DNA from: a virus
Length of the DNA: 14,032 bases
Virus genome (UHGV): UHGV-0332040
Strand: one strand, 5' to 3'
A program made the translations under genes and the position numbers. This document shows, one piece after another, positions 1-14,032 of the stretch. Numbering within the stretch: position 1 is the stretch's first letter; each line of letters begins with the position of its first letter. Under the pieces are notes generated by a model that did not search any database, had not been told where the DNA came from, and saw nothing but the letters and a program-made list of their open reading frames with translations.

Positions 1-1
1 A

Positions 2-415
2 TTAGTGCGCACTCATACGCGCCATGTTCAACACCTTCCGCACAGAGGTTTCAGACACGCCAACCTTACTTGCAATGTAACGATTCTTCTGGCCTTTTGC
101 AGAGCGCTCGATAATGTCAGCGCGTACTGCCTCAGTGATCACCTTGCGGGGTCTGGCTCGATTCTTCTCGTGCCGTTCACGTTCGCGCATCCGCTCGGCC
201 ATCTTCGGCGGCAGCACAGGGGAAAGCCCACGGCTAACGCCAGAGGTGCGGGTGTCGGACGTGGCAGCTCGGGCAACGATATAAACCACTTCGTCTGGAT
301 TGAAAACGTGCTGCACACGCTCAGGGTAAATGTGGTCGCATCTACCCAGCGGCAAGGCGAAATCCGGGCGCACGTCAGCGACACGCTCCACGGCATGGAA
401 ATTACAGGTACTCAT
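2..415 (-). CDS. DNA-binding protein with C-terminal helix-turn-helix (137 aa), function unknown
   Basis: Complete ORF with the stop at 2-4. A GAGG SD lies 6 nt upstream of the ATG at 415. The C-terminal segment RYIASKVGVSETSVRKVL looks like a resolvase/transposase-type HTH preceded by a basic RERERHEKNRARPRK stretch. The plus-strand ORF 5-418 is its antisense shadow. Confidence 0.6.
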   Translation of the reverse strand: MSTCNFHAVERVADVRPDFALPLGRCDHIYPERVQHVFNPDEVVYIVARAATSDTRTSGVSRGLSPVLPPKMAERMRERERHEKNRARPRKVITEAVRADIIERSAKGQKNRYIASKVGVSETSVRKVLNMARMSAH

Positions 416-554
416 TAGGAACCTCGGTTAATTAAAAACAGGCTTTTAGATGCCGCGCAGAATGCAGCTTGCGGGGACTCATGCGCTTAGATTGGTGTGG
501 TAGTACCGGGTTGGAGCGCACTCAGTCTTGCAGGGCGCATTCCACCGTTGGGCG

Positions 555-1241
555 TTAGCGACCAGCACGTTTGCCAGCGGAGCGCTGCGCAACCAGAGCG
601 CGGTATTGAATGTCGTACTGGCGATGGCCGGGGCCATACCCTGATTGCTGCGCCCACTGCGAAAGCTGATCATACGCTGCAATAAACTCAGCATGAGACA
701 TACCAACAGGTTGCGAGGCAGGCTGGCCGTATGGGTTCCCCTGTGATGGGACATAACCAGTCGCAGTGCCTGCGGCCATACGCTCTTGCAGATAATGAAC
801 CGCCCGCTGCATCTGCGCAGGGTCGCCAGACATAACCATCCGTTCAAGGGTTGATTGCGTCCCGGCGTCGAGCGTGCCAGCGTACTGCAACATCGCGTCA
901 ACTGTACCCTGCCCTAGCTGGCTTTCGACAGACTGGTGAAACTGCCCCATCAGCCCATGAAGTTCAGGAGTCAACTCAACAGTAGTGCCATCCTGTAATT
1001 GCAGTGTGTCGCCCACTTGTGCAGCAACATCAATCTGCTGGTCTTGCTGGTTGGCAAAGTTACTTTCGCTCCAGCTTTGATTAATGTTCGCTGGCTGCGT
1101 TTTCAGGAAATCAGCATCAGGTGTTGTCTGGTCGAATCGGCTAGCGCCGTTGTCAGCACCTACAGGTGCGGCCATGTACGGCGATTGCTGCGGCGCAGTA
1201 TCAGCGCCCGAAAGATATGGATTAACATTCTGGTCAGCCAT
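555..1241 (-). CDS. Hypothetical Q/N/D-rich acidic protein (228 aa)
   Basis: Long ORF in the same orientation as the operon. Its ATG lies 2 nt after the upstream stop (GCATAATCATG), and a GAGG sits about 10 nt upstream. I recognised no family motif. Confidence 0.6.
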   Translation of the reverse strand: MADQNVNPYLSGADTAPQQSPYMAAPVGADNGASRFDQTTPDADFLKTQPANINQSWSESNFANQQDQQIDVAAQVGDTLQLQDGTTVELTPELHGLMGQFHQSVESQLGQGTVDAMLQYAGTLDAGTQSTLERMVMSGDPAQMQRAVHYLQERMAAGTATGYVPSQGNPYGQPASQPVGMSHAEFIAAYDQLSQWAQQSGYGPGHRQYDIQYRALVAQRSAGKRAGR

Positions 1242-1243
1242 GA

Positions 1244-1483
1244 TTATGCAACCTCTTGTGATGTAACTCGGCGATGTGCCAGTTCAAGTAAAAGCATGTG
1301 TGCGTGTACGCAGCGTGGGGGAATCATCTTCTGACCGTGGTACGCCTTGCAGAGATCTTGTCTGTCAATTTGATACACACGAGCCAGATCGATTTGGCGT
1401 AGATTCAAGGCATCAGCAATGAATTTCAGTTGTTGCCCGCACTCCACCGCGCGGCGCGGCTCCATTAAAATGATGGTGCTCAT
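1244..1483 (-). CDS. Small HTH-like protein (79 aa)
   Basis: The start is trimmed to the ATG at 1483, which has GAGGA 7 nt upstream; the track ORF extends to 1525 without an RBS. The segment LNLRQIDLARVYQIDRQDLCKAYHG resembles an XRE/Cro-type HTH. Confidence 0.5.
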   Translation of the reverse strand: MSTIILMEPRRAVECGQQLKFIADALNLRQIDLARVYQIDRQDLCKAYHGQKMIPPRCVHAHMLLLELAHRRVTSQEVA

Positions 1484-1497
1484 GAAATAATCCTCAG

Positions 1498-1731
1498 TTA
1501 GATAAGGCCATGACGACGCAACCAACGTCGCTCGCCAACGGAGCCACGCGGTCGCTGCCTTGGGTTCTGGTTTGGTGCTTGGCCGGGATCAGTTCGTCCT
1601 TCCCCGGACAGGTTCTGTGTCAGCACATCCCAGCCGCGTGATTCAAACGGGGCGTATCCCTCGCGCTGTTCGTCAAGGTTCACATAGAGATCAGGGTTAA
1701 CGGCAGGGTGCAGCGGTTCGTTCTCTGCCAT
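1498..1731 (-). CDS. Hypothetical protein (77 aa)
   Basis: The ATG at 1731 overlaps the stop of the upstream gene (TGATG). It is co-oriented with the operon, and the next gene's SD lies in the 14-nt gap downstream. No recognisable motif. Confidence 0.45.
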   Translation of the reverse strand: MAENEPLHPAVNPDLYVNLDEQREGYAPFESRGWDVLTQNLSGEGRTDPGQAPNQNPRQRPRGSVGERRWLRRHGLI

Positions 1732-2291
1732 CACTTAGCCCCGAATCGCGTGTTAACATCTTCCAAAATATCGGGGTAGCTCCAGCGGTTACGCATCAGG
1801 CGCAGGACATGAGCAACAGCCTCAACAGAGATCCCAAGCTCTCCAGCGATCTCGGTTTGTTTCCAGCCGAAGCGCTCCAGCTTGTGCATCTGATCGAGGT
1901 CGGCGCTCAACAGGCGGCGCATCGTCTGAGGTTTCTCAGGCTTCGCTTTAACAGCTTTCGGCATCGGGTGGGTGTGGGCGTTGCTAAAGCGGGAATGTGC
2001 GATAGCCAGCACAGTCTCAGGGCGAATCAGCATATCGCGGGCAATCATAAACTCTGTATCGCGGTGCAGCTTGCCGGGCTTATAGCGGCTGCGGATGGCG
2101 TTGTACTCCGCCAGAGTGATATCAGCATCGTCTTTCCAATTTTCGGCCAAGTCATCGACATAGACGCCACGGATTACAGCATCAATATCGGTCAGGGTAT
2201 GACCTGTCTCCGCTGCAATCTCTTCATTGTTCTTTAGGTGCTTATGAGCCAGCGTGTTAATGCGCTGGATATCGGTAATGCTCAAAGTCAT
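1731..2291 (-). CDS. Putative DNA-binding protein with two HTH-like segments (186 aa)
   Basis: ATGA overlap with the upstream 58-codon ORF, and GGAG 8 nt upstream. The C-terminal WKQTEIAGELGISVEAVAHVLRL resembles a sigma-70 region 4 / LuxR-type HTH. The N-terminal NEEIAAETGHTLTDIDAVIRG is a second HTH-like stretch. Confidence 0.65.
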   Translation of the reverse strand: MTLSITDIQRINTLAHKHLKNNEEIAAETGHTLTDIDAVIRGVYVDDLAENWKDDADITLAEYNAIRSRYKPGKLHRDTEFMIARDMLIRPETVLAIAHSRFSNAHTHPMPKAVKAKPEKPQTMRRLLSADLDQMHKLERFGWKQTEIAGELGISVEAVAHVLRLMRNRWSYPDILEDVNTRFGAK

Positions 2292-2464
2292 ACATTAAAC
2301 TCCGAATCAAAATTGATCTGGTCAGTAACCAGCGAATGAATCAGCGCAAGGCTGGATGCGGTATGTGTGCCCGACTTGCGGGCGTTGTCGTACATGAAGC
2401 GGGCTACACGTTGATATTTCTCCGGCAGCGTGGCGAACCATTGCCGGAACTGTTCGGGGGTCAT
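2288..2464 (-). CDS. Small hypothetical protein (58 aa), absent from the ORF track because it is shorter than 60 aa
   Basis: Hand translation gives MTPEQFRQWFATLPEKYQRVARFMYDNARKSGTHTASSLALIHSLVTDQINFDSEFNV. It has ATGA overlaps at both ends (2461-2464 and 2288-2291). GGAGG lies about 10 nt upstream. It fills an otherwise unexplained gap in a tightly packed operon. Confidence 0.5.
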   Translation of the reverse strand: MTPEQFRQWFATLPEKYQRVARFMYDNARKSGTHTASSLALIHSLVTDQINFDSEFNV

Positions 2465-2670
2465 TGGTCGTCATCCTCCGGGAACACGTTGTTAAAGGTT
2501 GTATCAGGCGAGTCGGCGGCGTTCTGCTTGAGGAAGTTCACGCAGGATGACAACTCGGCAGCAGCCATGCGTGACTCTCCCGCCTCGTCCTCCTTAAGCC
2601 TGCGCGTCAACGCACCCAGCAGCAGGGTTTTTAGTTCCCATGCTCCGGCTTCAAATTCAGATTTCGTCAT
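2461..2670 (-). CDS. Small acidic hypothetical protein (69 aa)
   Basis: ATGA overlap with the upstream gene at 2667-2670, and GGAG about 10 nt upstream. There is a faint by-eye resemblance to small T7 gp18-like proteins (AAELSSCVNFLKQN versus PQLYNAINKLLDRH). That is not enough to name the product. Confidence 0.5.
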   Translation of the reverse strand: MTKSEFEAGAWELKTLLLGALTRRLKEDEAGESRMAAAELSSCVNFLKQNAADSPDTTFNNVFPEDDDQ

Positions 2671-3098
2671 TGGTGGTTATCTCCAGTTAGTCCCATTGCA
2701 CGCAAGTGTTGAATGACCTCGGCATGTACTGGTTTTGGTAAAAACAGGCGACGCTGCACGGATTGAAGTATCTCGTCGCGCGTCTTGTCGGCAGGGTGAA
2801 CAGTCCCATTAAAGACCTCACGAGCCATGCGATAGGTCGGCCAAAGGCGAGCGCCATCCTCCCTGCGACGGAATCTATTCAGCACAGCGGCCAGACACTC
2901 CCACGGCTCACAGTTATTGAGCAGGCAATACCGCTGTAGCGGTGTCGTTGCCCGGCGCATGATGGCTTCACGATTAAGGGTCTGAATATGACGTTCGGCC
3001 AGTCCGTCGAATGAATAGCCGTTCAAAGCAAAGGCGAGCTGCGCATTAAGCAGGGCGTCAGAACGCCCCGCACGATGCAGTGCGGTTTCATCAGGCAT
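2667..3098 (-). CDS. Hypothetical protein (143 aa)
   Basis: ORF with GGAG 8 nt upstream of the ATG at 3098. It is co-oriented with the operon and coupled to the downstream gene. No family motif recognised. Confidence 0.6.
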   Translation of the reverse strand: MPDETALHRAGRSDALLNAQLAFALNGYSFDGLAERHIQTLNREAIMRRATTPLQRYCLLNNCEPWECLAAVLNRFRRREDGARLWPTYRMAREVFNGTVHPADKTRDEILQSVQRRLFLPKPVHAEVIQHLRAMGLTGDNHQ

Positions 3099-3141
3099 AA
3101 GGATTCTCCAGAAAGGAATTTAAACAGGCGAGCTGGTCAGC

Positions 3142-5031
3142 TCAGAGGAAGCGGGAGATGTAACCCCAATTGCAGTTTTCAGGGCGGTACAACGCTGCCA
3201 GCTCATCAGGTACACCGGACGGCACCGGGGCAGAGTCGGCGTCATAGGTGATGGGGTCGCCATACAGAGCCAACGATGACCACAGCAGAAAAGCACGGGC
3301 AGGTTGACCGTCACGCCCGGCACGTCCGATCATCTGAACTAAATCGGGCAGGTCTTCGGGAACATAAGTGACAATTACGTTACGCACGCCAGAGATATCA
3401 GCCCCCAGCCCGAAGGCTTTAGTAGCAATCAGAACCGCGCCGGGCGTGCTGGCAAACCACGCAGCGTTAGCGTGACGCTGGTCGCGGCTCAGTCGCTCAA
3501 CGTCAGAATGGTAAGGCCGGGCGCGGTCTCCCAGTTCGTTGAGATACGCATACAGCATCTTGATACTGTCCACCATCACCAGCGTCTTCTCATCCAGCGG
3601 GAGGGCATCGACCAGACCAACGGCAGCCCGGCGCGTAGTTGCGCACTGCTGAACAGGAATAAGCTGGATGTTTTCACGGGCAGCACTGGCGCGGTAGGTG
3701 AGGAACTCGCCACGACAGCCAAGCTCTTTCATCAAGCCAGACTCATCACCTTTTCGCAGGGTCGCAGTAAACGCGCACCGCTGAGCATCCGGGAAGGCAT
3801 TTTTCAGGGTGTGTTTCATTGCAGGGAAAGCGTCCCGGAACTCCCATTCATCAACGGTATGAACCTCGTCAATGATAAATCTGTCCACACCAGCGGCCAT
3901 CAGCGCAGCCAGCACCTGATTGCCCGGCACCAGATGCTCAGGTGAAACTACGGCAACGTGGAAAGCGCCAGCAGCCAACCCCGCAAGCTGTTGCGCATTG
4001 CGTCGCCTCGGCAGCTTGTCGCCAAAGGCAACAGCGTGAACGCCAGTTTCTAGCAACTGCTGTAACACCTGCTGCTTGATGGTGTTTGTAGGCACAACAA
4101 TAACGGTCAGACCGTCATCAGAATCAGATTCAAATTGCAGGGCATAGGTGAATGCAGCCGTCTTTCCGTACCCGGTTGGCAGTACGGCCAATACATCGCG
4201 GTCACGGGCAAATACGGCGGCAGCTACGTCCTGCTGGCCGGGTCTCCAGTCTCTGCCATCTAGCGGTGGTAACGGTACGAATGCCGGGCGGTCGCATTGC
4301 TCCAGCTCGCGGAACCTGTACGGCGCGGTAACCAGCGGCGGGATGGACGGCGGCAGGCCAGCACCCCCAACGTCACAATGCAGATTCAGCGTATTGAATT
4401 TATCATCCGTGGGTTTCAGCTCACCGCACCACAACTGACGGAAAGCCGGGCAGTCACCCAGTCGCGTAAAGTCAGCATGGCGCATAGCTTCCAGCTTGCT
4501 CATGCCGCGACTGATACGACGCACGATCTTCTCATCGCAAATCAGAAACTCACGGCAGGCTTTGAGGAAGGCATTCTGCCCGGTTGTCGCTTCCGGGATG
4601 GAGTGCTCGCGCGGTTTAAGCGCAGCGTCATCAACGCGAACGCCGGGGAAATCTGGCGGCAGCGGCTCGGCGTACCGGGCAGGCTTTTTGTTTAGCCACA
4701 TCTCCAGCTCAGCGCGGCGGCAGTGGATTGCATCGCCCGGCTGGATAATCTGGCGCAACCCGGCATCAGCGCGGCGGGAATGTCGCTTGCGGCCAATTCC
4801 ATTCGCCTCTTTCCATTCACGGAACGACATAACTGAACCATCTGCATTGTAGAAATACTGCCCGGAAACGGTGTTAAGCGCTGCCTTCACTGGTCGCTGT
4901 TTAACAGGGCATAACTTGGAATGAGGTATAACGATCTTATCCGCAACCAGTTGCTGAGCATCCGCAGGCTCGGTGTTCAGCGGTTCGGCGTCAGCGGCCA
5001 GCGTAAGCAAGCGGTTTAAATTGGTTGGCAT
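3142..5031 (-). CDS. RecQ-family SF2 DNA helicase with an unassigned ~260-aa N-terminal domain (629 aa)
   Basis: Helicase motifs run in order: WRPGQQ (Q-motif-like), LPTGYGKT (motif I), IIDEVH (motif II, DExH) and FTATL (motif III). The end YHSD...LIATKAFGLGADISGVRNVIVTYVPEDLPDLVQMIGRAGRDG matches RecQ motifs V/VI (GRAGRDG). GGAG lies 9 nt upstream of the ATG at 5031. Confidence 0.85.
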   Translation of the reverse strand: MPTNLNRLLTLAADAEPLNTEPADAQQLVADKIVIPHSKLCPVKQRPVKAALNTVSGQYFYNADGSVMSFREWKEANGIGRKRHSRRADAGLRQIIQPGDAIHCRRAELEMWLNKKPARYAEPLPPDFPGVRVDDAALKPREHSIPEATTGQNAFLKACREFLICDEKIVRRISRGMSKLEAMRHADFTRLGDCPAFRQLWCGELKPTDDKFNTLNLHCDVGGAGLPPSIPPLVTAPYRFRELEQCDRPAFVPLPPLDGRDWRPGQQDVAAAVFARDRDVLAVLPTGYGKTAAFTYALQFESDSDDGLTVIVVPTNTIKQQVLQQLLETGVHAVAFGDKLPRRRNAQQLAGLAAGAFHVAVVSPEHLVPGNQVLAALMAAGVDRFIIDEVHTVDEWEFRDAFPAMKHTLKNAFPDAQRCAFTATLRKGDESGLMKELGCRGEFLTYRASAARENIQLIPVQQCATTRRAAVGLVDALPLDEKTLVMVDSIKMLYAYLNELGDRARPYHSDVERLSRDQRHANAAWFASTPGAVLIATKAFGLGADISGVRNVIVTYVPEDLPDLVQMIGRAGRDGQPARAFLLWSSLALYGDPITYDADSAPVPSGVPDELAALYRPENCNWGYISRFL

Positions 5032-5052
5032 GGTGCAAACTCCAGAGAAGGA

Positions 5053-5490
5053 TTAAATACTACGCGCCCAAGCTAAATCTTCGGGTGTCCGACTTTCGAT
5101 TAACGCTAACTGCCAGCGTAAGTAATCCTCATGTTCTTTGGTGTATCGGGGAATACCTATAGGATTTTTCACAGCGTCCGGGTTAGTCCTCGCGACTTCC
5201 CTGCAATCTCGGTCGAAAGCCCAGCGGGCAACTTCCACCGATTCGTAATCCGTAAATCGGTACGGCCTTGTGCGGGAACGTACACGCCAGACAACTTGCC
5301 CTAATTCGTGGATGTATATGCCGCAAAGTTCATCCGGGCTTGGGTGATACAATGGCTCCCCATAATTCTGGCGCATGAACTTCACAAACTTTTGATTGCG
5401 GCGGGCACGCCGTGCTTTTTCGCGTCGCTCCTCGGCTTCATACTCTTTTTGAATGGCGGCACGGTCTACCGGGATAAGTGTTTTGCTCAT
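5053..5490 (-). CDS. Hypothetical protein (145 aa), first gene of the helicase operon
   Basis: The start is trimmed to the ATG at 5490 (MSKTLIPVD...), which has GGAG about 8 nt upstream. The track ORF extension to 5667 runs through the iteron-like repeats and has no RBS. Basic EERREKARRARRNQK stretch; no family recognised. Confidence 0.6.
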   Translation of the reverse strand: MSKTLIPVDRAAIQKEYEAEERREKARRARRNQKFVKFMRQNYGEPLYHPSPDELCGIYIHELGQVVWRVRSRTRPYRFTDYESVEVARWAFDRDCREVARTNPDAVKNPIGIPRYTKEHEDYLRWQLALIESRTPEDLAWARSI

Positions 5491-5560
5491 ACAGTGATCT
5501 CCAGAAATTAATGTGAGTTTGGAACGGGGCGCAGGACGGAAGCGCCGGGAGTGTGGCAGT

Positions 5561-5914
5561 CTGTCCTCCTTAGTAGTTACCATCATTGCAATGGCGTCGG
5601 AGTTCTGTCTCTCTTTAGTAGTGATCTTCATCCAGTAATTTGGATTAAATGCAGACACGGCGGGCATTGCAGCGAGATGGAGAGTAGGCGGGCTTGCGGT
5701 TTCAGTCTGCCTTAGTACAAGTTTCTAGTGGTCGGTAGCCTTTCCCTTATTAGTAGCTCTCATTTATCCGGGGCTTGTCTTCCCACACAGTAGCCGTCTT
5801 CTAAAGCAACCACACCACAATCCACTACTGGCAAGGAGTTAGCAGACACGGTGATGTAGGCTACTCAAGTGTGGATTTGTAGGCGTTTTATAGTATCTGT
5901 CCTTCTTATTAGAC
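5561..5914. repeat. Array of six degenerate iteron-like repeats (plus-strand consensus about CTGTCYTCYTTAGTAG)
   Basis: Copies lie at 5561-5576, 5605-5621, 5705-5718, 5739-5756, 5774-5793 and 5897-5914, all in the same orientation. Three are spaced about 35 bp apart. A second perfect 10-mer, GCAGACACGG, occurs at 5651-5660 and 5842-5851. Confidence 0.6.
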
Positions 5915-5980
5915 ACCTTTAAATTTCATTAATAAATACAGTTAGTTAAACGGTTATCTTTATTACTTATAAATTTCACA

Positions 5981-6002
5981 GATCAATAAATTAAAATTGA
6001 TC
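5981..6002. repeat. Perfect 7-bp inverted repeat carrying two GATC sites (GATCAAT-N8-ATTGATC) inside an AT-rich block
   Basis: Read directly from the sequence. The surrounding region, about 5915-6050, is strongly AT-rich by eye. Confidence 0.7.
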
Positions 6003-6015
6003 GGAATTATCAGCT

Positions 6016-6044
6016 TTAATTTTCTTGACAGCTATTTGTATAAT
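6016..6044 (+). promoter_or_regulatory. Candidate sigma-70 promoter (perfect -10 TATAAT at 6039-6044, weak -35 TTAATT at 6016-6021)
   Basis: The TATAAT is preceded by TG at 6037-6038 in an AT-rich context. The TTGACA at 6025-6030 is only 8 bp from the -10, so it cannot be its -35. No plus-strand ORF lies downstream. Confidence 0.3.
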
Positions 6045-6050
6045 GGTTTT

Positions 6051-6190
6051 AAGAAGTTGTATCGGAGTGAGCGACTGGCAGTGAGCGTAGCGAACGATAA
6101 GCCAGTCGGCGAAGAACGAAGAGTATGAGATGACTTGTCATCGAATACGATGAGTGATTGAGCGGTACGAACGGAGATACGCTGTATAAC
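6051..6190 (+). ncRNA. Candidate structured purine-rich RNA downstream of the TATAAT promoter
   Basis: Stop-rich, with no ORF on either strand apart from the low-complexity 64-aa track ORF on the minus strand. There is an 8-bp perfect stem CGACTGGC/GCCAGTCG (6072-6079 / 6101-6108). There is a near-palindromic hairpin at 6123-6148 and a possible closing helix GTATC/GATAC (6059-6063 / 6176-6180). The motifs GAGTGAGCG and CGAACGA repeat. Ends and strand are not established. Confidence 0.3.
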
Positions 6191-6222
6191 AGTTAGAACA
6201 GTTAACAAGCTGATTAATGCTT

Positions 6223-6387
6223 TCAATGATTATCTGAATCAGTGTTATCAATTCCGAAATAACTCTTCCTCTCCTGTATTGATTCAATCATTTCTTTCAT
6301 TTCAAGAATCACTACCAGCTCAGCTAATAACCGTCTCAGTTCAACATTTGAATCATTAGCACGACACTTATTTTCTGAGTATTCCAT
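6223..6387 (-). CDS. Small charged helical protein (54 aa), below the ORF-track cutoff
   Basis: Hand translation gives MEYSENKCRANDSNVELRRLLAELVVILEMKEMIESIQERKSYFGIDNTDSDNH. GGGAG lies 8 nt upstream of the ATG at 6387. A candidate promoter lies upstream. The gene is AT-rich, moron-like in composition. Confidence 0.45.
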   Translation of the reverse strand: MEYSENKCRANDSNVELRRLLAELVVILEMKEMIESIQERKSYFGIDNTDSDNH

Positions 6388-6432
6388 ACGGTCAACTCCC
6401 TACGGTATAAGTCCATTCCAATCCGTTCACAG

Positions 6433-6460
6433 ATTACATTGCTGAATGATCATCAGACAA
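6433..6460 (-). promoter_or_regulatory. Candidate sigma-70 promoter for the 54-codon ORF (TTGTCT-16 nt-TGTAAT) with a GATC-centred near-palindrome in the spacer
   Basis: On the minus strand the -35 is TTGTCT (6455-6460) and the -10 is TGTAAT (6433-6438). The spacer overlaps the near-palindrome CTGAATGATCATCAG (6442-6456). The motif GTGAACGGATTG (6419-6430) sits at the predicted transcription start. Confidence 0.35.
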
Positions 6461-6479
6461 GTGGCAGTCATCATCACCA

Positions 6480-6920
6480 AGTTAGAGTCGTCTCGCTACA
6501 TATCCCCGCCGGATTGCCAGCGCGGCTAACACGGTTGTGAGGAGCGCCGAGCATCACAGCGGACGCAGGCCGATGAACGAGCCGTAGGTGAGTGAAAGCG
6601 GACTCGCGGACGCGAGAAGCGCAGCAGCAGGCGGCGACTGATAAACGAGCCAGACAGGTGAGTGCAAGCAGGCGTAAGCACTGCACCGTTGAGAGGTGTG
6701 GAGACGGCGGAACGTCTCCGCGTTAGGGAGGTGGATTTGGGGAGGATGTGCAAGGCACACCTCGCTCCACCCACGGGGTGTCGGTGGGTAGGGGTATAAC
6801 GCTAATTGGTTAAGTGTACACATGTACGCTGAAATCATTAAAAGCCTATAGAAACAGCATGTAACCCAGCACCACGACATAACCAATTATCGTTGAACCC
6901 CCTCCCCGGCCCCACCCGGA
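6480..6920. ncRNA. Candidate large structured non-coding element (GC- and purine-rich on the plus strand)
   Basis: There is no credible ORF; the three minus-strand frames are open only because that strand is pyrimidine-rich. Five strong hairpins lie at 6603-6616, 6657-6687, 6700-6719, 6742-6763 and 6769-6789. Two ~30-nt degenerate repeat units lie 68 nt apart (6572-6601 and 6640-6672). G-runs at 6726-6745 and 6775-6794 face a C-run at 6898-6919. AT-rich sequence flanks the island. Confidence 0.3.
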
Positions 6921-7089
6921 ATTTTTCAGTGATGAATCACTTCACAATCTGATCTCGATGTTCATCGTCTGGCACGGCTAAAGCCCCGCCATCTCTTCAC
7001 ATCGAGAGCCGCAAGTAATACGAAAATACATTATAAATCATAGCATTACGACATCGCGCATAACATAACGCTCTGAAATTAATACGAAA

Positions 7090-7207
7090 GCTGTAGGTCA
7101 TCCATCACCCACAGCCCAGTAACGGCCAGTGCTGGCACCTCATTTGGCTGTAGGTCAGCCCGACCCCACCGCCCAATAACCCCACCCGGCAGCAATGGCA
7201 CGGCACC
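7090..7207. repeat. Tandem pair of ~50-60 bp degenerate direct repeats starting GCTGTAGGTCA
   Basis: Unit 1 is 7090-7139 and unit 2 is 7147-7207. Both begin GCTGTAGGTCA and end ...GGCACC. TAATACGAAA is duplicated just upstream at 7016-7025 and 7080-7089. Confidence 0.65.
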
Positions 7208-7329
7208 AGACGCAGCGTAACGATCTCTGAGTTGATAAATCACTTAGGGCAGCGTAACCCACACCCAACGGCTCACATCCTCGCAGAGAGGCTCACAGAT
7301 CACCTCGTGACATTTCACAGCATCAACCC

Positions 7330-7953
7330 TCAGACGCTGGCAGCCAGCTCACGCTTAATGCGGTAGAACGTTGCCCGGCTTATCCCGGCAGCTTTCATGA
7401 TGCGCTCCGGTTTCACACCCTGCGCCAGCATTTCCCTGACGGTCTCGCGAGCGGCGGCATCCTTCTGACTCCCACGATAAAGCCCCTCAGCTTTGGCTCG
7501 TTCAATGCCCTGCCGCTGGCGCATCAGTCGCGTCTCGTAGTCCACGCGGGCCATTGTAGCGAGGATATCGATCAGCATTGCGTTAACGGCTCTGAGGATG
7601 CCGCTGGTTAGCTCTGACGCGGTTTCGTTCAGCAACTGCCACGAGGTTGGCAGGTCAACGGCGACGATCACCAGCCCCTTATCCTGAATCCTCTGTTTCA
7701 GTGTCGCCCATTCCTTTTGTGTCAGGCGGCTTAGCCTGTCTATGCTTTCGACAAGTAGAACGTCGCCAGCCTCCGCCTCACCCAGCAGGCGCATCAGTTC
7801 AGGACGCTCCAGCCGCGCACCGCTGGCGTTCTCGATGTATCGCGCAGCAATAGACCAACCACGCTCATTAGCGAAATCCTCCAGCGCAGGAACGGCACGG
7901 TCGGCGTGTTGCTCGGCGGTGGATGCCCTGGCATACAGACGAACGTTATTCAT
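7330..7953 (-). CDS. Small serine recombinase (resolvase/invertase family, 207 aa)
   Basis: The N-terminal RLYARASTAEQ carries the catalytic-serine motif. VLLVESIDRLSRL is the resolvase core motif. ISRATFYRIKRE is the C-terminal HTH. GGAGGG lies 6 nt upstream of the ATG at 7953. Confidence 0.9.
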   Translation of the reverse strand: MNNVRLYARASTAEQHADRAVPALEDFANERGWSIAARYIENASGARLERPELMRLLGEAEAGDVLLVESIDRLSRLTQKEWATLKQRIQDKGLVIVAVDLPTSWQLLNETASELTSGILRAVNAMLIDILATMARVDYETRLMRQRQGIERAKAEGLYRGSQKDAAARETVREMLAQGVKPERIMKAAGISRATFYRIKRELAASV

Positions 7954-8062
7954 GATTCACCCTCCAAATCTCAGTGAAGTATCACATCCCGACATGAAGG
8001 AGATCACACTTAAAAACCGTGGTCAATAGGGTATAAAATAAATTTGATTGCGACAGCTTAGG

Positions 8063-8210
8063 CACATCACAATGCGGTATACCCGGATGAGACAGAGACA
8101 GCCAGCGGCAGACTGGCACCGAGTCACAGCAAAACCCCGGCGCACCCAGCGAACGCAGCGCAAAGCGCACACAGGAGATCAGCACGGCACCGCCACGATC
8201 TCGAAATCAC
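8063..8210. repeat. Right-hand copy of a direct repeat that also occurs left of the recombinase gene (6938-7243)
   Basis: Shared motifs are collinear. CACWTCACAAT lies at 6938 and 8063. CGGCAG-N3-TGGCAC lies at 7187 and 8105. GCACGGCACC lies at 7198 and 8182. ACGATCTC lies at 7220 and 8195. AAATCAC lies at 7237 and 8204. Confidence 0.6.
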
Positions 8211-8536
8211 AAAGGCGTTGAATCAAACATTGCAACCGCAGCAGTAACCAGCCAGCATTTCGCGCCTGCAACGGTTGTCTCGGATGAGCAAAATCTTAGG
8301 GTTTTCTCAGCGACCCCTGACGCGCGGGCACGCACATGCGCACGGGGGCGCGGGCGAGCTATACAGTTGAGGGAGGGGCAACCATAAGCGTGCAATTTTT
8401 CAAGCCGGGACTTTTAACAGTGGGATTGTGAGGCTATTTTGCATTCAGAGAGTGAGGCTGTAGGGTAGCTCCCCTTGAACCAGATAACGCTAAGCTAACC
8501 ATTTTCCCCACTGCTTAAGCCACTTTGCGTTGACGT

Positions 8537-9785: not shown

Positions 9786-9875
9786 AGAGCTAACTCATTG
9801 AGTTATAAGGCTTTTAATGGGCTGGAGCGGGCGAAGGGAATCGAACCCTCATAGCTAACCCATTGAATTGTGAAC
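9786..9875. repeat. Imperfect 25-bp direct repeats bracketing the att core (AGCTAACYCATTGARTT)
   Basis: The copies at 9786-9810 and 9851-9875 match at about 18 of 25 positions by hand alignment. A further 9-mer, GCGGTACTT, lies at 9762-9770 and 9890-9898. Confidence 0.65.
9823..9850 (-). other. att core: 28-nt copy of the 3' end (T-arm, acceptor 3' strand, CCA) of tRNA-Gly(CCC), glyU type; not a complete tRNA
   Basis: The minus strand reads GAGGGTTCGATTCCCTTCGCCCGCTCCA. As I recall it, this matches the 3' end of E. coli glyU. Sequence 5' of it on the minus strand (9851 onward) cannot form the acceptor, D or anticodon arms. Confidence 0.85.
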
Positions 9876-9938
9876 CAAAATAAGTAATCGCGGTACTTAT
9901 CCCGGTAGTTGGTAGCGGTAGATTACAAGGTAATTACC

Positions 9939-11165
9939 ATGCCAATCAAGAAGACTTCTTATCTTTATGCAAACAAAGATGGGATATTCATCTTTCAAAT
10001 CTTTATCCCGGTGTACATGCGCCACTTATGGCACGGGCGGCGCTCACTCAAGAAATCGACAGGCACGCGGGACATCATGCAAGCTCGCATATTCCGTGAC
10101 CAATACTTATTAGAGTTCCGAAAGCTCCAGCTCATGATGAAACCGGATAACCCTATAAACCGGATTCATTCTGCTATTTCAGATCTTCACTTACTGGCGG
10201 GAATATCCAGCGACATTACCGCGCCCGTAACTACTCCAGCAGAACGAGGGAAACCAGCGTCGCCAAAATTGACAGATGTCAGTAAAGAATATGCAGAGCA
10301 ATACAAAGATCGGCGCTCTTATTCCACATTGAGTAAATCCGCTCGCGCTGTATCAGCATTCACTAAATCAACTAAGCGCCCAACAATTACAATAAACGGA
10401 ATCGGGCGGCGGCTCGTCTCTGACTTTCTGAAAGCGAACCAAGATAAGTTTTCCCGGCAGACGATGCAAAACTGGTTAACTTGCTTAGGTACGCTGTACG
10501 ACTTCGCCCGGCGTAAATATGACAATATCGCCCCTGATAATCCCTTTCACGGCCACAATCTGGAAGCCCGTCAGACAAACGAAAGTTACCAGCCGTTTGA
10601 ACCGCACCAGCTACAGACATTAACAAAAAAGGCAGGTGACGAAATAAGGGATGTAATAATAATCGGGCTGTATTCCGGGATGCGTCTTGATGAAATAGCC
10701 AGCATTAAACGGGATGAGGTTGTCACCATCGACGGCGTGCGGTGTTTCTATGTCAGTAAATCAAAAACAAAGGCGGGTATAAGGCATGTCCCTGTACACT
10801 CGCTGTTATTTGACATTGTTGATAAATACCTCGCGCAAAACAGCGGGGAGTACCTGCTCCCCCAATCCAACAAAATTAAACGCGCGGATGGTAAACGTGG
10901 GCCGTGGTATTCTCAGACATTTACCCGCTTACGTCGCCGGGTACTACCAACAGCCACAGAGCGCCAGTGTTTCCACTCCCTGCGTGGTCACTTCATCACC
11001 TGCTTAGACCGGGCAGGTGTACCAGAACAGCGCATAGGAGCTATTACCGGGCATACAGAGAAAAAGGCAAAGACGGAAGCATTTAAAACGTACAGCCAAG
11101 GGGCTGGGATGAAAGAACTATCTGAATACGTAGAGCTGGTAAGTTATCCAGAACTTGAATCATAA
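9939..11165 (+). CDS. int: Tyrosine recombinase / phage-type integrase (408 aa)
   Basis: The C-terminal catalytic pattern is present: GMRLDEI (Arg), HSLRGH (His-x-x-Arg) and GHTEK...FKTY (His and Tyr). It lies directly next to the tRNA-derived att core. The start is trimmed to the ATG at 9939; the track start at 9909 is a TTG. Confidence 0.9.
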   Translation: MPIKKTSYLYANKDGIFIFQIFIPVYMRHLWHGRRSLKKSTGTRDIMQARIFRDQYLLEFRKLQLMMKPDNPINRIHSAISDLHLLAGISSDITAPVTTPAERGKPASPKLTDVSKEYAEQYKDRRSYSTLSKSARAVSAFTKSTKRPTITINGIGRRLVSDFLKANQDKFSRQTMQNWLTCLGTLYDFARRKYDNIAPDNPFHGHNLEARQTNESYQPFEPHQLQTLTKKAGDEIRDVIIIGLYSGMRLDEIASIKRDEVVTIDGVRCFYVSKSKTKAGIRHVPVHSLLFDIVDKYLAQNSGEYLLPQSNKIKRADGKRGPWYSQTFTRLRRRVLPTATERQCFHSLRGHFITCLDRAGVPEQRIGAITGHTEKKAKTEAFKTYSQGAGMKELSEYVELVSYPELES

Positions 11166-11167
11166 TT

Positions 11168-11596
11168 TCAGGCAGGGTAAATAATCCCCAGCCCGCGATA
11201 CTGGCGGCGGTATTCTCTGACCAGAGCATCCGCCGTCGCCCTCGGCAGCTTCGCCATATGCCCGGTACGATAGCCACCCTCGGCAGAATTCGCTGCACGA
11301 TGTACAACAGCCCGCACGCGCCCGGTTCTGTGGTCGTGGTCGAGGGTCGTGCTGCTGAACGCAACAGCCCGCCCGGTAACGGCACACCGTCGATACTGAT
11401 AATTCCACAGAAAGCAACGCACCGCAGCCACGTCAGCACGGCGCAACTCCAGTCGCCCTGAACCATTCAACAGGAGGCGATACACATCGTCGAATGCAGC
11501 AGCGTTTCTAACGCGCTCAGCCAGCGGCATATTGCCAAGGAACTCCAGATAATCCCGCATTGCTTTTCTTAAAAGTTGGTCTGTCCGTGTAACCAT
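11168..11596 (-). CDS. Endonuclease VII-family (His-Me finger) protein lacking most zinc-binding cysteines (142 aa)
   Basis: CAVTGRAVAFSSTTLDHDHRTGRVRAVVHRAANSAEG aligns with the family pattern CxxCG...DHDHxTGxVRGLLCxxCNxxLG. The DHDH and Asn are retained but 3 of 4 Cys are replaced. GGAG lies about 10 nt upstream of the ATG at 11596. Confidence 0.7.
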   Translation of the reverse strand: MVTRTDQLLRKAMRDYLEFLGNMPLAERVRNAAAFDDVYRLLLNGSGRLELRRADVAAVRCFLWNYQYRRCAVTGRAVAFSSTTLDHDHRTGRVRAVVHRAANSAEGGYRTGHMAKLPRATADALVREYRRQYRGLGIIYPA

Positions 11597-11868
11597 GATT
11601 CAAAGTCTCCATTGTCAGACACAGCCCGCTTGCAGGCTTCGTATTCTTCGCGCTGGCGTTGGCATACCAGAGCATAAAGCTCATCAGCCACCGCATTTAC
11701 GCGCCTATCACTGATACCGTTGCGACGCATCTGCCCCAGCAGCTTACGAAATTCAGCCTCAAGCTCAGGCTCTCCTGTATCCATTACCCACTGTTTCAAG
11801 TCAGCGAGTGCGCCAGTCATTGGCGGCGGCTCGATGTACCGCCACCTTAATTTAATCGTCAAAGCCAT
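11569..11868 (-). CDS. Hypothetical protein (99 aa)
   Basis: The start is placed at the ATG at 11868, with GAGG 7 nt upstream. Alternative starts lie at 11874 and 11820. The gene overlaps both neighbours, as is typical of phage late clusters. No motif recognised. Confidence 0.5.
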   Translation of the reverse strand: MALTIKLRWRYIEPPPMTGALADLKQWVMDTGEPELEAEFRKLLGQMRRNGISDRRVNAVADELYALVCQRQREEYEACKRAVSDNGDFESWLHGQTNF

Positions 11869-12277
11869 AAGCATTCCTCTTTATATCGTTTGCTCTCGCT
11901 TCACTGGCTTGTTTAAGCGTCATTCCTTCGATAGCTATATCCAGCAGTTCCTTTTGCTTACCAGCCAATCGCAAGGCGCTGTCTCTCCAGCAAAGCAGAA
12001 AGAAGATTGTCAGCACCTGTTTACTCAATCCATCCAGAAGATCGCCAAGTCCTTGATCCAGCAGACAGGCACGCCATGCAGCAGCGTGCTGCGTCATAGC
12101 ACCGACTATCGGGATAGGTGCGCCAAGCATCGTCGCAAGCTGACTCATAACACTATTAGCATCGCCCGGATGCAGCCGGGGAATAGTCATGCGGCCAGCC
12201 TGCGCCAACAGCTCGGCGTACCTCTGGCGACGTGGGTCATCACATGCCAGCGGTTTAATTGGCTTTTCATCAGCCAT
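11852..12277 (-). CDS. Hypothetical protein (141 aa)
   Basis: GGAGG lies 8 nt upstream of the ATG at 12277. It follows the HNH gene after an 18-nt gap. No motif recognised. Confidence 0.6.
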   Translation of the reverse strand: MADEKPIKPLACDDPRRQRYAELLAQAGRMTIPRLHPGDANSVMSQLATMLGAPIPIVGAMTQHAAAWRACLLDQGLGDLLDGLSKQVLTIFFLLCWRDSALRLAGKQKELLDIAIEGMTLKQASEARANDIKRNAYGFDD

Positions 12278-12295
12278 ATATGGAACCTCCGAGGA

Positions 12296-12823
12296 TTAGG
12301 CAGCCTGCAACAAATCGGCTGGCGTTGAGGGATGGTATCTGGCTTTAGCTTTTAGATAGGCAGCACGCGCCGCCGCTTCGGTTGTGAACAAGCCAAGGTG
12401 ATGGCGTACACCATTAACGCGAATGTAAGCCTCCCATTTACCAGAACAAGAATGACGGCTATATCCCTTCGCTTTGCGGTAGTTGTGCTGATTCTCCTGC
12501 GGTGTAACAGCGCGGAGGTTGCCCGGTCGATTATCGGCACGTACAGCGTTAATGTGGTCGATTTGCAGACCGTCAGGGATACCACCATTAGCAATGATGA
12601 AGGCCACGCGATGCGCATAAATCGAGTGCGTCCTGCCGTCGATGCGGACAGACACGCGCCGATACCCGGCGCTGTCCGTTGCGGTGTCAGCCAGTTCCCC
12701 GGCCTCAGCATAAATCCGCTTGTTGATTCCAATTCGGTCTACTGCATGGAACAGGCGGCCAGTCTCCGCATCGTATCGAAATAAAGAGCGTAGCAGCTCA
12801 GGGGCGTAAGCATCATTAACCAT
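12296..12823 (-). CDS. HNH homing endonuclease with C-terminal AP2-like DNA-binding domain (175 aa)
   Basis: IDHINAVRADNRPGNLRAVTPQENQHN is the HNH_3-type motif. The N-terminal YDAETGRLFH...GYRRVSVRIDGRTHSIYAHRVAF is typical of this phage endonuclease family. GKWEAYIRVNGVRHHLGLFTTEAAARAAYLKA looks like an AP2 domain. Confidence 0.85.
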   Translation of the reverse strand: MVNDAYAPELLRSLFRYDAETGRLFHAVDRIGINKRIYAEAGELADTATDSAGYRRVSVRIDGRTHSIYAHRVAFIIANGGIPDGLQIDHINAVRADNRPGNLRAVTPQENQHNYRKAKGYSRHSCSGKWEAYIRVNGVRHHLGLFTTEAAARAAYLKAKARYHPSTPADLLQAA

Positions 12824-12839
12824 GACTCAGCCCCTCCAG

Positions 12840-13835
12840 TTACACAGCTTGTCGGAAATTGATAACGCAGTCAGGGCGGCGCAGTCCAACATTGAACAGG
12901 CGATATGAGTCCATCACCATCGTCATTTCGCGCTCATCATCCCACTGGCGATTGATAACGCTCTGCGCTTCGACTGTCACAAGTACAGACGCAGGCCGGA
13001 ACAGCGTCGCCCGCGTCAGCGCTTCCTCTGAGGTAACGTCATAATCAGCGCCCAGTTCATGCCCGGTAATAGCTTCCTGCGGGTAACTGTTCAGCTCAAT
13101 GACTCGTACCCCAGCGACATAGCCAACTCGACGCCATGCGTAATCGTTGCCACTATCCCGGCTGTAACGGACGTTCATCAGCTTCTTATGTTCCATCAGG
13201 ATGCTGAACCAAGCCGGGTCGATAAGCAGTACCAGCTCGGCCACCGGAATATCTTTCTCAGTGAGAAAGCGATTAGCAGCCGCTTTTACGACGTGAGCCA
13301 ATTCGTTTGCGGCGTCCTCTTCGCTCCCCGCTGTCAGGTCGAGCGATACAACGTTATCCGTTAGTGGGTTAAACGTTGGTTGCAGTGTCGGCGGCGGTAC
13401 AAAGTCAGTCGCTTTGATTAGCTGGATGGTGTGCGCTTCGTCGTAGAATTTAGCGTGAGCAGTACCCATATTGCGGCTCAGCTCTGCGCGAAAGGTGGGC
13501 GCTGTCCAGTCGTCCTGATAGTCAATCGGAATGCGGATATAGCTCAGCGTATCCACAGAGATAATCAGCTTATCCGACTTAACAGCGGTAGGCTCCAGCG
13601 ATTGCCCTGCGGTTCTGCCCTTCACCTCCAGATCACCACTCAGGCGATCAATGCGGTATTGGTTGCTGGCTTTCAGCGGCCTGTATGTAGACAGCCCCTC
13701 TGCCAGAAATACGGATTTGGACTCTAAACGGGTCTGGACATCCCGGTCATAAGCCTCGATGTGAATATCATTGTCGGATTCCACCCCGCCATAATGTGGG
13801 CGAAACAGATCGGGACTGTACGAAGTATCAGTCAT
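12840..13835 (-). CDS. Major capsid protein, T7 gp10-like (HK97 fold) (331 aa)
   Basis: By-eye alignment to T7 gp10A matches two blocks. FRAELSRNMGTAHA aligns with VRSEYTSQLGESLA. The C-terminal LFRPASVLVTVE...GLRRPDCVINF aligns with LFMHRSAVGTVK...GLRPEAAGAVVF. The start is trimmed to the ATG at 13835, with AGGAG 8 nt upstream; the track start at 13880 has no RBS. Confidence 0.75.
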   Translation of the reverse strand: MTDTSYSPDLFRPHYGGVESDNDIHIEAYDRDVQTRLESKSVFLAEGLSTYRPLKASNQYRIDRLSGDLEVKGRTAGQSLEPTAVKSDKLIISVDTLSYIRIPIDYQDDWTAPTFRAELSRNMGTAHAKFYDEAHTIQLIKATDFVPPPTLQPTFNPLTDNVVSLDLTAGSEEDAANELAHVVKAAANRFLTEKDIPVAELVLLIDPAWFSILMEHKKLMNVRYSRDSGNDYAWRRVGYVAGVRVIELNSYPQEAITGHELGADYDVTSEEALTRATLFRPASVLVTVEAQSVINRQWDDEREMTMVMDSYRLFNVGLRRPDCVINFRQAV

Positions 13836-13894
13836 AAACAAAACTCCTACGTAGGTTGATGAAGCCCGCGCCATCGTCATGGCACAGACGTGCG

Positions 13895-13919
13895 GAATCC
13901 TCCCGCCGAGGCAGGATTC
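13895..13919 (-). promoter_or_regulatory. Stable hairpin in the capsid gene leader
   Basis: The minus strand reads GAATCCTGCCTCGGCGGGAGGATTC, giving a 7-bp stem plus 2 further pairs. It lies about 60 nt upstream of the capsid ATG. No U-run follows, so it is not a typical intrinsic terminator. Confidence 0.35.
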
Positions 13920-14032
13920 AGAACGGTATCGATTAAAGGGATGAGGTGCCCCGAAATGGGCGTTTTGAGGCCAGAGCTGGCGCGGTTCTCAGAGGTTAGT
14001 GCGCGTGAAGTAAGGCGAACGTATTACCTTGC

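Follow-up and report, generated by a model that had tools for sequence, protein, structure and literature searches.

The described systems closest to the element considered here are the phage satellites, which vary in how much of the virion they take from a helper phage. Classical phage-inducible chromosomal islands (PICIs), including the Staphylococcus aureus pathogenicity islands (SaPIs), and P4 integrate at tRNA or other attachment (att) sites, are about one third the size of their helpers, redirect the small terminase subunit (TerS) or packaging and carry defence cargo. These are features that the present element has or would have in common with them, but they remodel the helper capsid through CpmAB or Sid and encode no capsid protein of their own. 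The capsid-forming PICIs (cf-PICIs; 10.1101/2022.09.08.507074) are 10-15 kb tyrosine-integrase islands of Enterobacteriaceae that bring their own capsid and small terminase, lack tail and lysis genes, have HNH genes near the head genes and occur as near-identical copies across genera. All of this has a counterpart in the island of about 14 kb described here, which makes up the virus genome record UHGV-0332040, a stretch of 14,032 nucleotides referred to below, at its full length, as the window.

The likeness to cf-PICIs ends with the remainder of the head module. The cf-PICI core has a portal, a protease/decoration protein, a head-tail adaptor, a connector and a large terminase (TerL), all five of which are absent from the window, and where cf-PICIs have an alpA/pri-rep module the present element has a RecQ-type helicase and, as its presumed helper, a virulent podophage. 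Of the int-alpA-pri-rep module of Gram-negative PICIs only the integrase is found. The SatelliteFinder model for cf-PICIs lists 11 core components and requires at least 9 (PMC10085698). The capsid module itself is also of another kind. An earlier note on this DNA had remarked that it is not the HK97-type, protease-dependent module of cf-PICIs, and it is in fact of the protease-independent type of the T7 supergroup. By marker content the element is therefore outside cf-PICI, classical PICI and P4. In function it would sit between the first two, as classical PICIs steal everything and cf-PICIs only tails, whereas this element would take not only the tail of the helper but also its portal, core and motor.

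A number of other systems provide partial parallels. The nearest conceptual precedent for a satellite homologue of the major capsid protein is Ccm of SaPIbov5 (PMC5052747), which gives rise to satellite-sized capsids and to helper interference. Ccm is, however, a lone divergent homologue in a Gram-positive cos-SaPI and needs the helper capsid and scaffold, whereas the present element has a full-length, highly conserved capsid protein of Autographiviridae lineage, accompanied by a scaffold of its own and by a TerS-like gene. The PLE islands that respond to ICP1 and the PICMI elements (PMC10803314) are, like this one, chromosomal islands with a strictly lytic phage as presumed trigger and packager. 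From host range and gene content it is implausible that the present element is one of them, as they are elements of Vibrionaceae with myophage helpers, without a capsid gene and without any gene in common with the window; PLE relies on the scaffold TcaP, and there is no remodelling of capsids by PICMI. Their family markers are capR, repA, nixI and lidI for PLE and fis, alpA and a Vibrionaceae terS for PICMI. MiniFlayer and MulchRoom (PMC10690885) and the Acinetobacter element Aci01-2-Phanie (cited in 10.1101/2025.06.18.659913) are small (12-18 kb), helper-dependent and equipped with their own encapsidation proteins. MiniFlayer has no replication genes and no integrated state, the hosts and capsid lineages of all three differ from those found here, and a relation in sequence is not to be expected. 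The relevant phages are instead Escherichia phage Lidtsur (NC_048177; Autographiviridae, Bonnellvirus) and its kin, which are lytic, have genomes of 41-43 kb and encode an RNA polymerase, a DNA polymerase, a portal, tail tubular proteins A and B, internal virion proteins, a fibre, TerL and lysis functions. With Lidtsur the island has in common a scaffold-then-capsid gene order and the lineage of its capsid protein, scaffold C-terminus, TerS N-terminal half, EndoVII and HNH types. The openly searchable literature, which leaves aside subscription-only papers, yielded no satellite reported to have a capsid module of Autographiviridae type, nor any account of this family. What, then, is such a module doing in an integrated island?

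The element, its boundaries and its head genes

The firmest conclusion is that the window is a complete, functional, non-phage integrative element carrying a capsid gene under selection, of which there can be little doubt. The region is matched at 100% identity in E. coli 5735 (megablast), where local BLAST places window 9822-14032 on 20001-24211 of the chromosomal record (L001) and window 1-8243 on 24212-32448. As the two ends of the window are adjacent in this chromosome, the window represents a single complete unit of about 14 kb in circularly permuted form. The attP site claimed by the earlier note is real. Its 29-nt core lies directly upstream of the integrase gene, has an exact match at 39014-39042 of the same record, within a tRNA-Gly gene, and borders the integrated copy as well (the coordinates of this and other features are collected in Table 1). 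The presence of the attP junction within the window means that the sequence derives either from a circle formed by excision or from copies in tandem, and the contiguous ends together with the internal attP mean that no gene of the element can lie outside it. In eight integrated relatives the att-to-att distance is 14,428-15,158 bp, so that nine elements in all, the window included, can be compared for size, and the att repeats of these relatives, 14.4-15.2 kb apart, stand next to ordinary chromosomal genes. Integrated copies are flanked by ygeQ/ETT2 on one side and by actS-xdhA on the other. In E. coli NCTC11023 the element is likewise found between the ETT2 type III secretion cluster, from which IS421 and a glycoside hydrolase gene separate it, and tRNA-Gly/actS/xdhA, while in E. 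coli LD26-1 it occupies tRNA-Leu(CAA), adjoining ahr. Three tRNA sites (tRNA-Gly, tRNA-Leu and a third tRNA) are used by the relatives, with different integrases. Two element-sized Logan contigs (L034 and L037) are non-circular and end at a tRNA-derived att copy at the integrase end, and in PLSDB the window was matched only in part.

The element belongs to a widespread family. Relatives with the same gene order are present in 61 of 5,426 complete E. coli genomes and also in Cronobacter, Enterobacter, Citrobacter, Klebsiella, Kluyvera, Kosakonia, Trabulsiella and Phytobacter. The gene order is constant in all retrieved relatives, from more than ten genera or species, and the core contains no pseudogenes. 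Pairwise ratios of non-synonymous to synonymous substitution (dN/dS) of the core genes against four diverged relatives are 0.04-0.29, indicating purifying selection. IMG/VR holds two relatives, non-identical to the window, that are called viral. Signs of mobility are a capsid sequence that is the same in different genera, the large cluster of close relatives of that protein and the three tRNA sites with their different integrases. A satellite way of life has indirect support from the attP junction that the window contains, from the capsid identity across genera and from the small spread of sizes.

The protein of 331 amino acids (aa) on which this account turns is a capsid protein by several lines of comparison. 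It matches four solved podophage capsid proteins with E values from 1.8e-79 (PDB 23sf_I) to 2.2e-55, is 56% identical over 94% of its length to those of Escherichia phages Lidtsur, glasur, forsur and J8-65 and is some 55% identical to relatives from Kosakonia, Cronobacter, Pantoea and Enterobacter. The protein is full length, every region of it aligning with phage capsid proteins, and 761 phage records match it, the matches listed being phiKMV-like podophages. The earlier note had called this gene T7 gp10-like, which stands at the level of the phage family but not for T7 itself, since BLASTP against gp10A finds only a 24-residue stretch (E 0.043), without meaningful similarity. T7 was accordingly rejected as a relative, the scaffold described below having no significant similarity to gp9 either. 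The capsid start is the ATG at 13835, and its GGAG ribosome-binding site is kept in 19 distinct upstream sequences. Among the core proteins compared, the capsid protein is the most conserved (92.7-97.3% aa identity, against 71-86% for the helicase), with dN/dS of 0.08-0.16 in the pairwise comparisons with the four diverged relatives, and its 90%-identity cluster has 978 member sequences. Exact copies of the sequence are annotated for Cronobacter sakazakii and, under 'MULTISPECIES', for Enterobacteriaceae; besides E. coli, two further types of chromosomal context contain it, making three contexts, and such identity across genera points to a recent inter-genus transfer.

The capsid gene is accompanied by two further head and packaging genes that the earlier note had missed. 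The 228-aa protein is predicted to be a scaffold with the C-terminal domain of phage scaffolds. In nine of 13 family members it matches phrog_1018, 'head scaffolding protein' (best E 3.1e-10), and in hhalign its residues 124-228 correspond (E 2.1e-5) to residues 310-410 of the scaffold of Lidtsur, which is 411 aa long. The AlphaFold model, of low confidence (pLDDT 54), is disordered at the N-terminus and helical in the core and has a helix-turn-helix (HTH) at the C-terminus, which is the typical layout of a scaffold. Its dN/dS is 0.12-0.22. The 69-aa protein matches PF11123 in 11 of 12 family members, with all matches under the gathering score (best E 1.8e-4). Its residues 13-53 align by hhalign with residues 11-57 of the 101-aa Lidtsur TerS (E 3.1e-6, probability 88%), and its tblastn match falls within the annotated Lidtsur terS gene.

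On the other side of the capsid gene the minus strand continues with an HNH-AP2 endonuclease, two ORFs (open reading frames), of 141 aa and 99 aa, and then an EndoVII-like nuclease that faces the convergent integrase, and all of these were found where the earlier note had placed them. The HNH-AP2 protein is of the free-standing homing-endonuclease type. Among the matches listed, its phage relatives (38-48% identity) are for the most part phiKMV-like podophages that infect Pectobacterium, Klebsiella and Acinetobacter, along with Xanthomonas phages, and one of these relatives adjoins a scaffold gene. The EndoVII-like gene, which closes the long minus-strand string 2 nt from the integrase stop codon (dN/dS 0.18-0.28), has a weak match within the endonuclease VII gene of Lidtsur, where the enzyme is encoded as gp30; in phiKMV-like phages such an enzyme is a regular part of DNA maturation. 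When the proteins of the element were compared with Lidtsur by tblastn only the capsid, TerS and EndoVII genes were matched. Taken as homologues, the capsid, scaffold, TerS, EndoVII and HNH types all appear to come from one phage lineage.

The whole 14,032 bp was annotated. The 20 ORFs taken to be genes were scanned with both Pfam and PHROGs, a further 10 in non-coding stretches with PHROGs only, and in these 30 ORFs there is no portal, large terminase, protease, connector, tail, holin or endolysin gene and no match to prohead protease or head decoration families. That no tail gene follows the capsid gene, as the earlier note had said, is borne out by both the ORF listing and the family scans, and no tail or lysis module was found elsewhere in the element. 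There is no family match to an Autographiviridae RNA polymerase, DNA polymerase, portal, tail tubular protein A or B, internal virion protein or TerL, nor any near-DNA match between the window and phage records. Pfam and PHROGs likewise gave no match to AlpA or primase, to the P4 markers psu, delta, sid, alpha, epsilon or cos, or to any PICI morphogenesis gene, ppi or pri-rep. The satellite-like interpretation that the earlier note put forward is supported by this anatomy, from which, together with the homologies, we infer the satellite behaviour itself.

A proposed assembly route and its competitors

The reading that we favour, by a small margin and with its mechanism included, is that these tRNA-integrating islands of about 14 kb are an undescribed satellite family of Enterobacteriaceae whose likely helpers are lytic, phiKMV-like Autographiviridae. 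In this process phage infection would lead to excision of the island through its integrase at attP/glyU, followed by replication with the RecQ-type helicase, which is presumed to be the replication protein. The long minus-strand string would be expressed, ending with the scaffold, the HTH protein, the capsid protein, the HNH endonuclease, the two small ORFs and EndoVII. Heads of the T7 type are made from a portal/core, a scaffold and a capsid protein (T7 gp8, gp9 and gp10) without a maturation protease, and because no prohead protease is needed a capsid and scaffold pair suffices as a kit for a shell. The satellite capsid protein, with a scaffold shortened to 228 from 411 aa but retaining the phage-type C-terminal capsid-binding end, would build a smaller shell around the portal/core of the helper. 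The truncated TerS would either steer the helper TerL to satellite DNA or block the helper TerS, and the portal, internal core, tail, TerL and lysis functions would be taken from the helper. EndoVII would debranch satellite DNA for packaging, and the HNH endonuclease may cut helper DNA, by analogy with the nucleases of PLE, where NixI and Odn act on the DNA of the helper. The ratio of element to candidate-helper size is 0.33-0.37 (14.0-15.2 kb against the 40.8-43.0 kb genomes with the closest capsid proteins). The P4/P2 and SaPI1/80alpha pairs have the same ratio, with T=4 replacing T=7 heads. The strategy would thus be an intermediate one, new among described satellites, in which the satellite contributes its own capsid protein, short scaffold and truncated TerS to a small, satellite-only shell on a helper portal/core and leaves motor, tail and lysis to the helper. 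For this more specific scheme the chances are evenly poised; helper dependence, small capsids and the parts played by the TerS-like, HNH and EndoVII proteins are all matters that we infer.

Several considerations weigh against this reading. A T=4 shell would hold 14-15 kb, one third of a helper genome of about 42 kb, although the T number is unpredictable from sequence, and a trimer of about 14.5 kb would fill a full-size head too. The 69-aa protein is TerS-like only in its N-terminal half, with moderate confidence, and tblastn found no BLAST-level phage relatives of it or of the scaffold, the homology of both being at profile level. The conserved non-coding region of the element has no match among 50,697 phage records; blastn between Lidtsur and the window returns only the capsid gene and no common cis site; and a phage RNA polymerase promoter could not be defined, as repeat and k-mer searches between the genes of Lidtsur yielded no consensus for a late promoter. 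Nothing in the window could be identified as an excisionase, an AlpA-like activator or a repressor that senses the helper. Among phage capsid proteins the best identity is only 56%, and the true helper may be unsequenced. Finally, T7-type phages kill quickly and degrade host DNA, which a chromosomal satellite has to outrun.

Could the capsid gene serve a satellite in some other way? The protein may act as a size-redirecting modifier that mixes or competes with the helper capsid protein, as the Ccm homologue does in giving small capsids (PMC5052747), or the element may travel as a trimer of about 43 kb in helper-size heads. Three copies of 14.0-15.2 kb come to 42-46 kb, close to the helper genome, and 56% identity with a conserved scaffold C-terminus could permit mixed assembly. 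Yet a pure modifier has no need of the scaffold that the element encodes, nor does the full-length capsid protein, aligned in all its regions with those of phages, look like one. Packaging in T7-type phages is site-specific rather than headful, and DNA of unit length would under-fill a large head. This family of possibilities is best regarded as unlikely. No more probable is a defence island, in which capsid protein, scaffold and truncated TerS would be dominant-negative poison subunits against phiKMV-like phages, with the nucleases as effectors and with spread by ordinary transduction or other means. A TerS cut to its N-terminal half and a scaffold without the N-terminal part of its phage counterpart are typical interfering fragments, there are Abi-type cargo genes, the helicase is matched by a PADLOC model, and neither the blastn comparison with Lidtsur nor the search of phage records identified a pac or cos site. 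This explanation nevertheless leaves unaccounted for both the tight size range of 14.0-15.2 kb and the conservation of a full-length capsid protein above the other core proteins compared. It also has to accommodate an element with its own integrase, att site and helicase and with an identical capsid protein in different genera, and in known satellites interference and satellite spread are usually coupled.

The two remaining explanations would make the element a phage or what is left of one. An integrase together with a few Autographiviridae-type genes, and the viral label given to the two IMG/VR relatives, could be taken for a decaying remnant of an integrated T7-like prophage from a temperate podovirus. 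This is very improbable for a gene set and order that recur in many genera with no core pseudogenes, constant size and dN/dS of 0.04-0.29, and in which there is no trace of RNA polymerase, DNA polymerase, portal, tail tubular or core genes. The alternative that the earlier note itself had raised, namely a complete temperate podovirus with tail and lysis genes outside the window, has the capsid gene in its favour and nothing more. It is contradicted by a window that is the whole element, with contiguous ends and an internal attP, and by att repeats with host genes beyond them within 15 kb (ygeQ/ETT2 and actS-xdhA), and it can for practical purposes be dismissed.

Remaining genes and conserved non-coding regions

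Table 1. Features of the 14,032-nt window, with coordinates, strand and the evidence for each.
Feature	Coordinates	Strand	Evidence or comment
Major capsid protein, phiKMV/Bonnellvirus type, 331 aa	12840..13835	-	phrog_267 'major head protein', E 6.9e-70
Hairpin GAATCCTGCCTCGGCGGGAGGATTC	13895..13919	-	~60 nt upstream of capsid start; folds at -13.4 kcal/mol
Predicted head scaffolding protein, short, 228 aa	555..1241	-	phrog_1018, E 5.1e-6, C-terminal half
Putative truncated T7-gp18-type small terminase homologue, 69 aa	2461..2670	-	PF11123 DNA_Packaging_2
137-aa protein, C-terminal HTH	2..415	-	directly upstream of capsid gene
Four small conserved ORFs, 79, 78, 186 and 58 aa	1244..2464	-	order kept in relatives; dN/dS 0.04-0.25
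143-aa conserved protein	2667..3098	-	dN/dS 0.12-0.20
RecQ-family DEAD/DEAH helicase, 629 aa	3142..5031	-	PF00270, PF00271; TIGR00614 recQ_fam E 3e-38, below cutoff
Two conserved non-coding blocks	~6484-6626, 6891-7157	-	upstream of helicase-to-capsid gene string
Serine recombinase, resolvase/invertase type, 207 aa	7330..7953	-	PF00239 E 3.9e-25; phrog_125 E 6.2e-42
DUF1643 protein, 166 aa	8537..9037	-	PF07799 E 2e-38; variable cargo slot beside attP
attP core, 29 nt	9822..9850		identical to tRNA-Gly(CCC) (glyU) 3' end
Tyrosine integrase, 408 aa	9939..11165	+	PF00589 E 8.3e-10; phrog_1 E 1.4e-32
EndoVII-like nuclease, 142 aa	11168..11596	-	PF02945 E 4.6e-6; phrog_423 E 1.4e-13
99-aa protein	11569..11868	-	kept in most relatives, dN/dS ~0.2; replaced in L034
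141-aa all-helical protein	11852..12277	-	AlphaFold, low confidence, pLDDT 56
HNH_3 + AP2 endonuclease, 175 aa	12296..12823	-	HNH_3 PF13392 E 2.2e-17; AP2 E 0.0011; phrog_99 E 1.1e-50

From the large non-coding region the minus strand encodes, in order, proteins of 145, 629 (the helicase), 143, 69, 58, 186, 78, 79, 228 and 137 aa and then the capsid protein. Of the replication module described in the earlier note, made up of a helicase and iterons, the gene for the RecQ-family helicase is present; the iterons find no support, as Tandem Repeats Finder (TRF) detected no tandem repeats and only weak two-copy repeats are found. The helicase has an N-terminal extension of about 250 aa and a dN/dS of 0.14-0.15. 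It is matched across all 504 positions, with 1053 bits, by the PADLOC 'DpdF' sub-model PDLC02858, although the NCBIfam DpdF model gives 108 bits against a cutoff of 550. With this score below cutoff and no other Dpd protein found by PADLOC, a Dpd (7-deazaguanine DNA modification) system was rejected. PDLC02858 itself seems to be derived from this island family, and PADLOC may therefore mislabel such satellites as Dpd fragments.

The smaller genes of the string are less readily assigned. The 143-aa, 141-aa and 99-aa proteins have no match in Pfam, PHROGs or PADLOC, and the AlphaFold models of the 141-aa protein (pLDDT 56) and of the scaffold (pLDDT 54) are below what a fold search needs. The 141-aa protein falls into 44 clusters, every one from Enterobacteriaceae, with dN/dS of 0.19-0.29. 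The four small ORFs at 1244-2464 give weak HTH matches only, that of the 186-aa ORF being of ParB/sigma type. A sharp mosaic boundary separates 2288-2670 from 2667-5031. The 69-aa protein is identical in L001-L003, and its gene is identical to those of L002 and L003 (dN = dS = 0), and the 58-aa gene is nearly identical to theirs (dS ~0.2), but for the 143-aa and helicase genes next to them dS is 1.5-2.1. Such a boundary at the 69-aa/143-aa genes indicates recent recombination within the family.

The slot between scaffold and capsid genes is variable. In the window it holds the 137-aa HTH protein, with weak matches to HTH_23 (E 7e-4) and to phrog_836, 'late transcriptional activator' (E 0.0018), and in relatives (L017-L024 and L034) it holds genes for 87 and 178 aa or for 115 aa. 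The hairpin GAATCCTGCCTCGGCGGGAGGATTC ahead of the capsid gene, reminiscent of the stem-loops ahead of T7-type capsid genes, is kept in one of two types of capsid upstream region among 19 distinct relatives. A variable slot together with two unrelated upstream regions suggests exchangeable regulatory cassettes. Downstream of the capsid gene, L034 (10651-12109) has two HNH genes, of 175 and 302 aa, and a 70-aa ORF in place of the 141/99-aa pair, while L037 (12283-13200) has an AbiTii gene beside the integrase, so that the genes in this part are partly accessory. The cargo slot on the attP side, occupied by the DUF1643 gene in the window, has DUF3800, a 136-aa gene or others in relatives, whereas the AbiTii of L037 is at the integrase end. 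Known satellites carry defence-type cargo, to which AbiTii and DUF3800 in these slots correspond.

The element encodes two recombinases. The integrase ORF starts mechanically at 9909, and an identical gene is labelled site-specific integrase in RefSeq. The serine recombinase is found in every inspected relative for which that part of the element was retrieved, and no convincing inverted repeats that would mark an invertible segment flank it in the window. In E. coli 5735 a different glyU island of 4,482 bp, containing a 545-aa integrase, DUF4145 and two hypothetical genes, is present in perfect copies on both sides of the element (L001 15548-20029 and 34561-39042), with the result that four att cores stand in a row. 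This array reflects either tandem islands formed by repeated integration or recombination, or a duplication in the assembly.

The non-coding blocks at 6484-6626 and 6891-7157 are 75-91% identical in all relatives while their flanks have diverged, and with a third block at 8363-8410 the range across the family is 75-100%, above that of the neighbouring genes. On the minus strand 6891-7038 is almost invariant across 10 loci, is preceded by a TATAAT box and contains the palindrome GTGATTCATCAC, which in most relatives reads GTGATTTATCAC. The RNA fold of 6885-7025(-) has a z score of -2.7, and Rfam has no match anywhere in the window. The region is a candidate leader RNA, promoter, operator, origin of replication or pac site. 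Scans of the window for sigma-70 promoters and terminators gave counts not above shuffled expectation. In Lidtsur (L004 1055-2557 and 5965-6032) a GC hairpin followed by a ATGGCAATCATGCC-like motif occurs in at least five early intergenic gaps, and this repeat may serve Bonnellvirus phages as an early promoter or as a signal for RNA processing. An 11-mer common to the Lidtsur repeat search and the satellite hairpin was discarded as within chance expectation.

Significance for the Enterobacteriaceae and their phages

The family is common and spans clinically important Escherichia, Klebsiella, Enterobacter, Cronobacter and Citrobacter, and going by the published core components of such models, SatelliteFinder-type searches probably miss it. 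If the proposed route is right, the capsid and scaffold pair would be a compact two-gene system in which to study the setting of capsid size on a foreign portal, and the element would move defence cargo between genera. Moreover, phiKMV- and T7-like phages are favoured for therapy, and if they are hijacked or poisoned by a resident element of this kind, then both their host range and the outcome of therapy would be affected.

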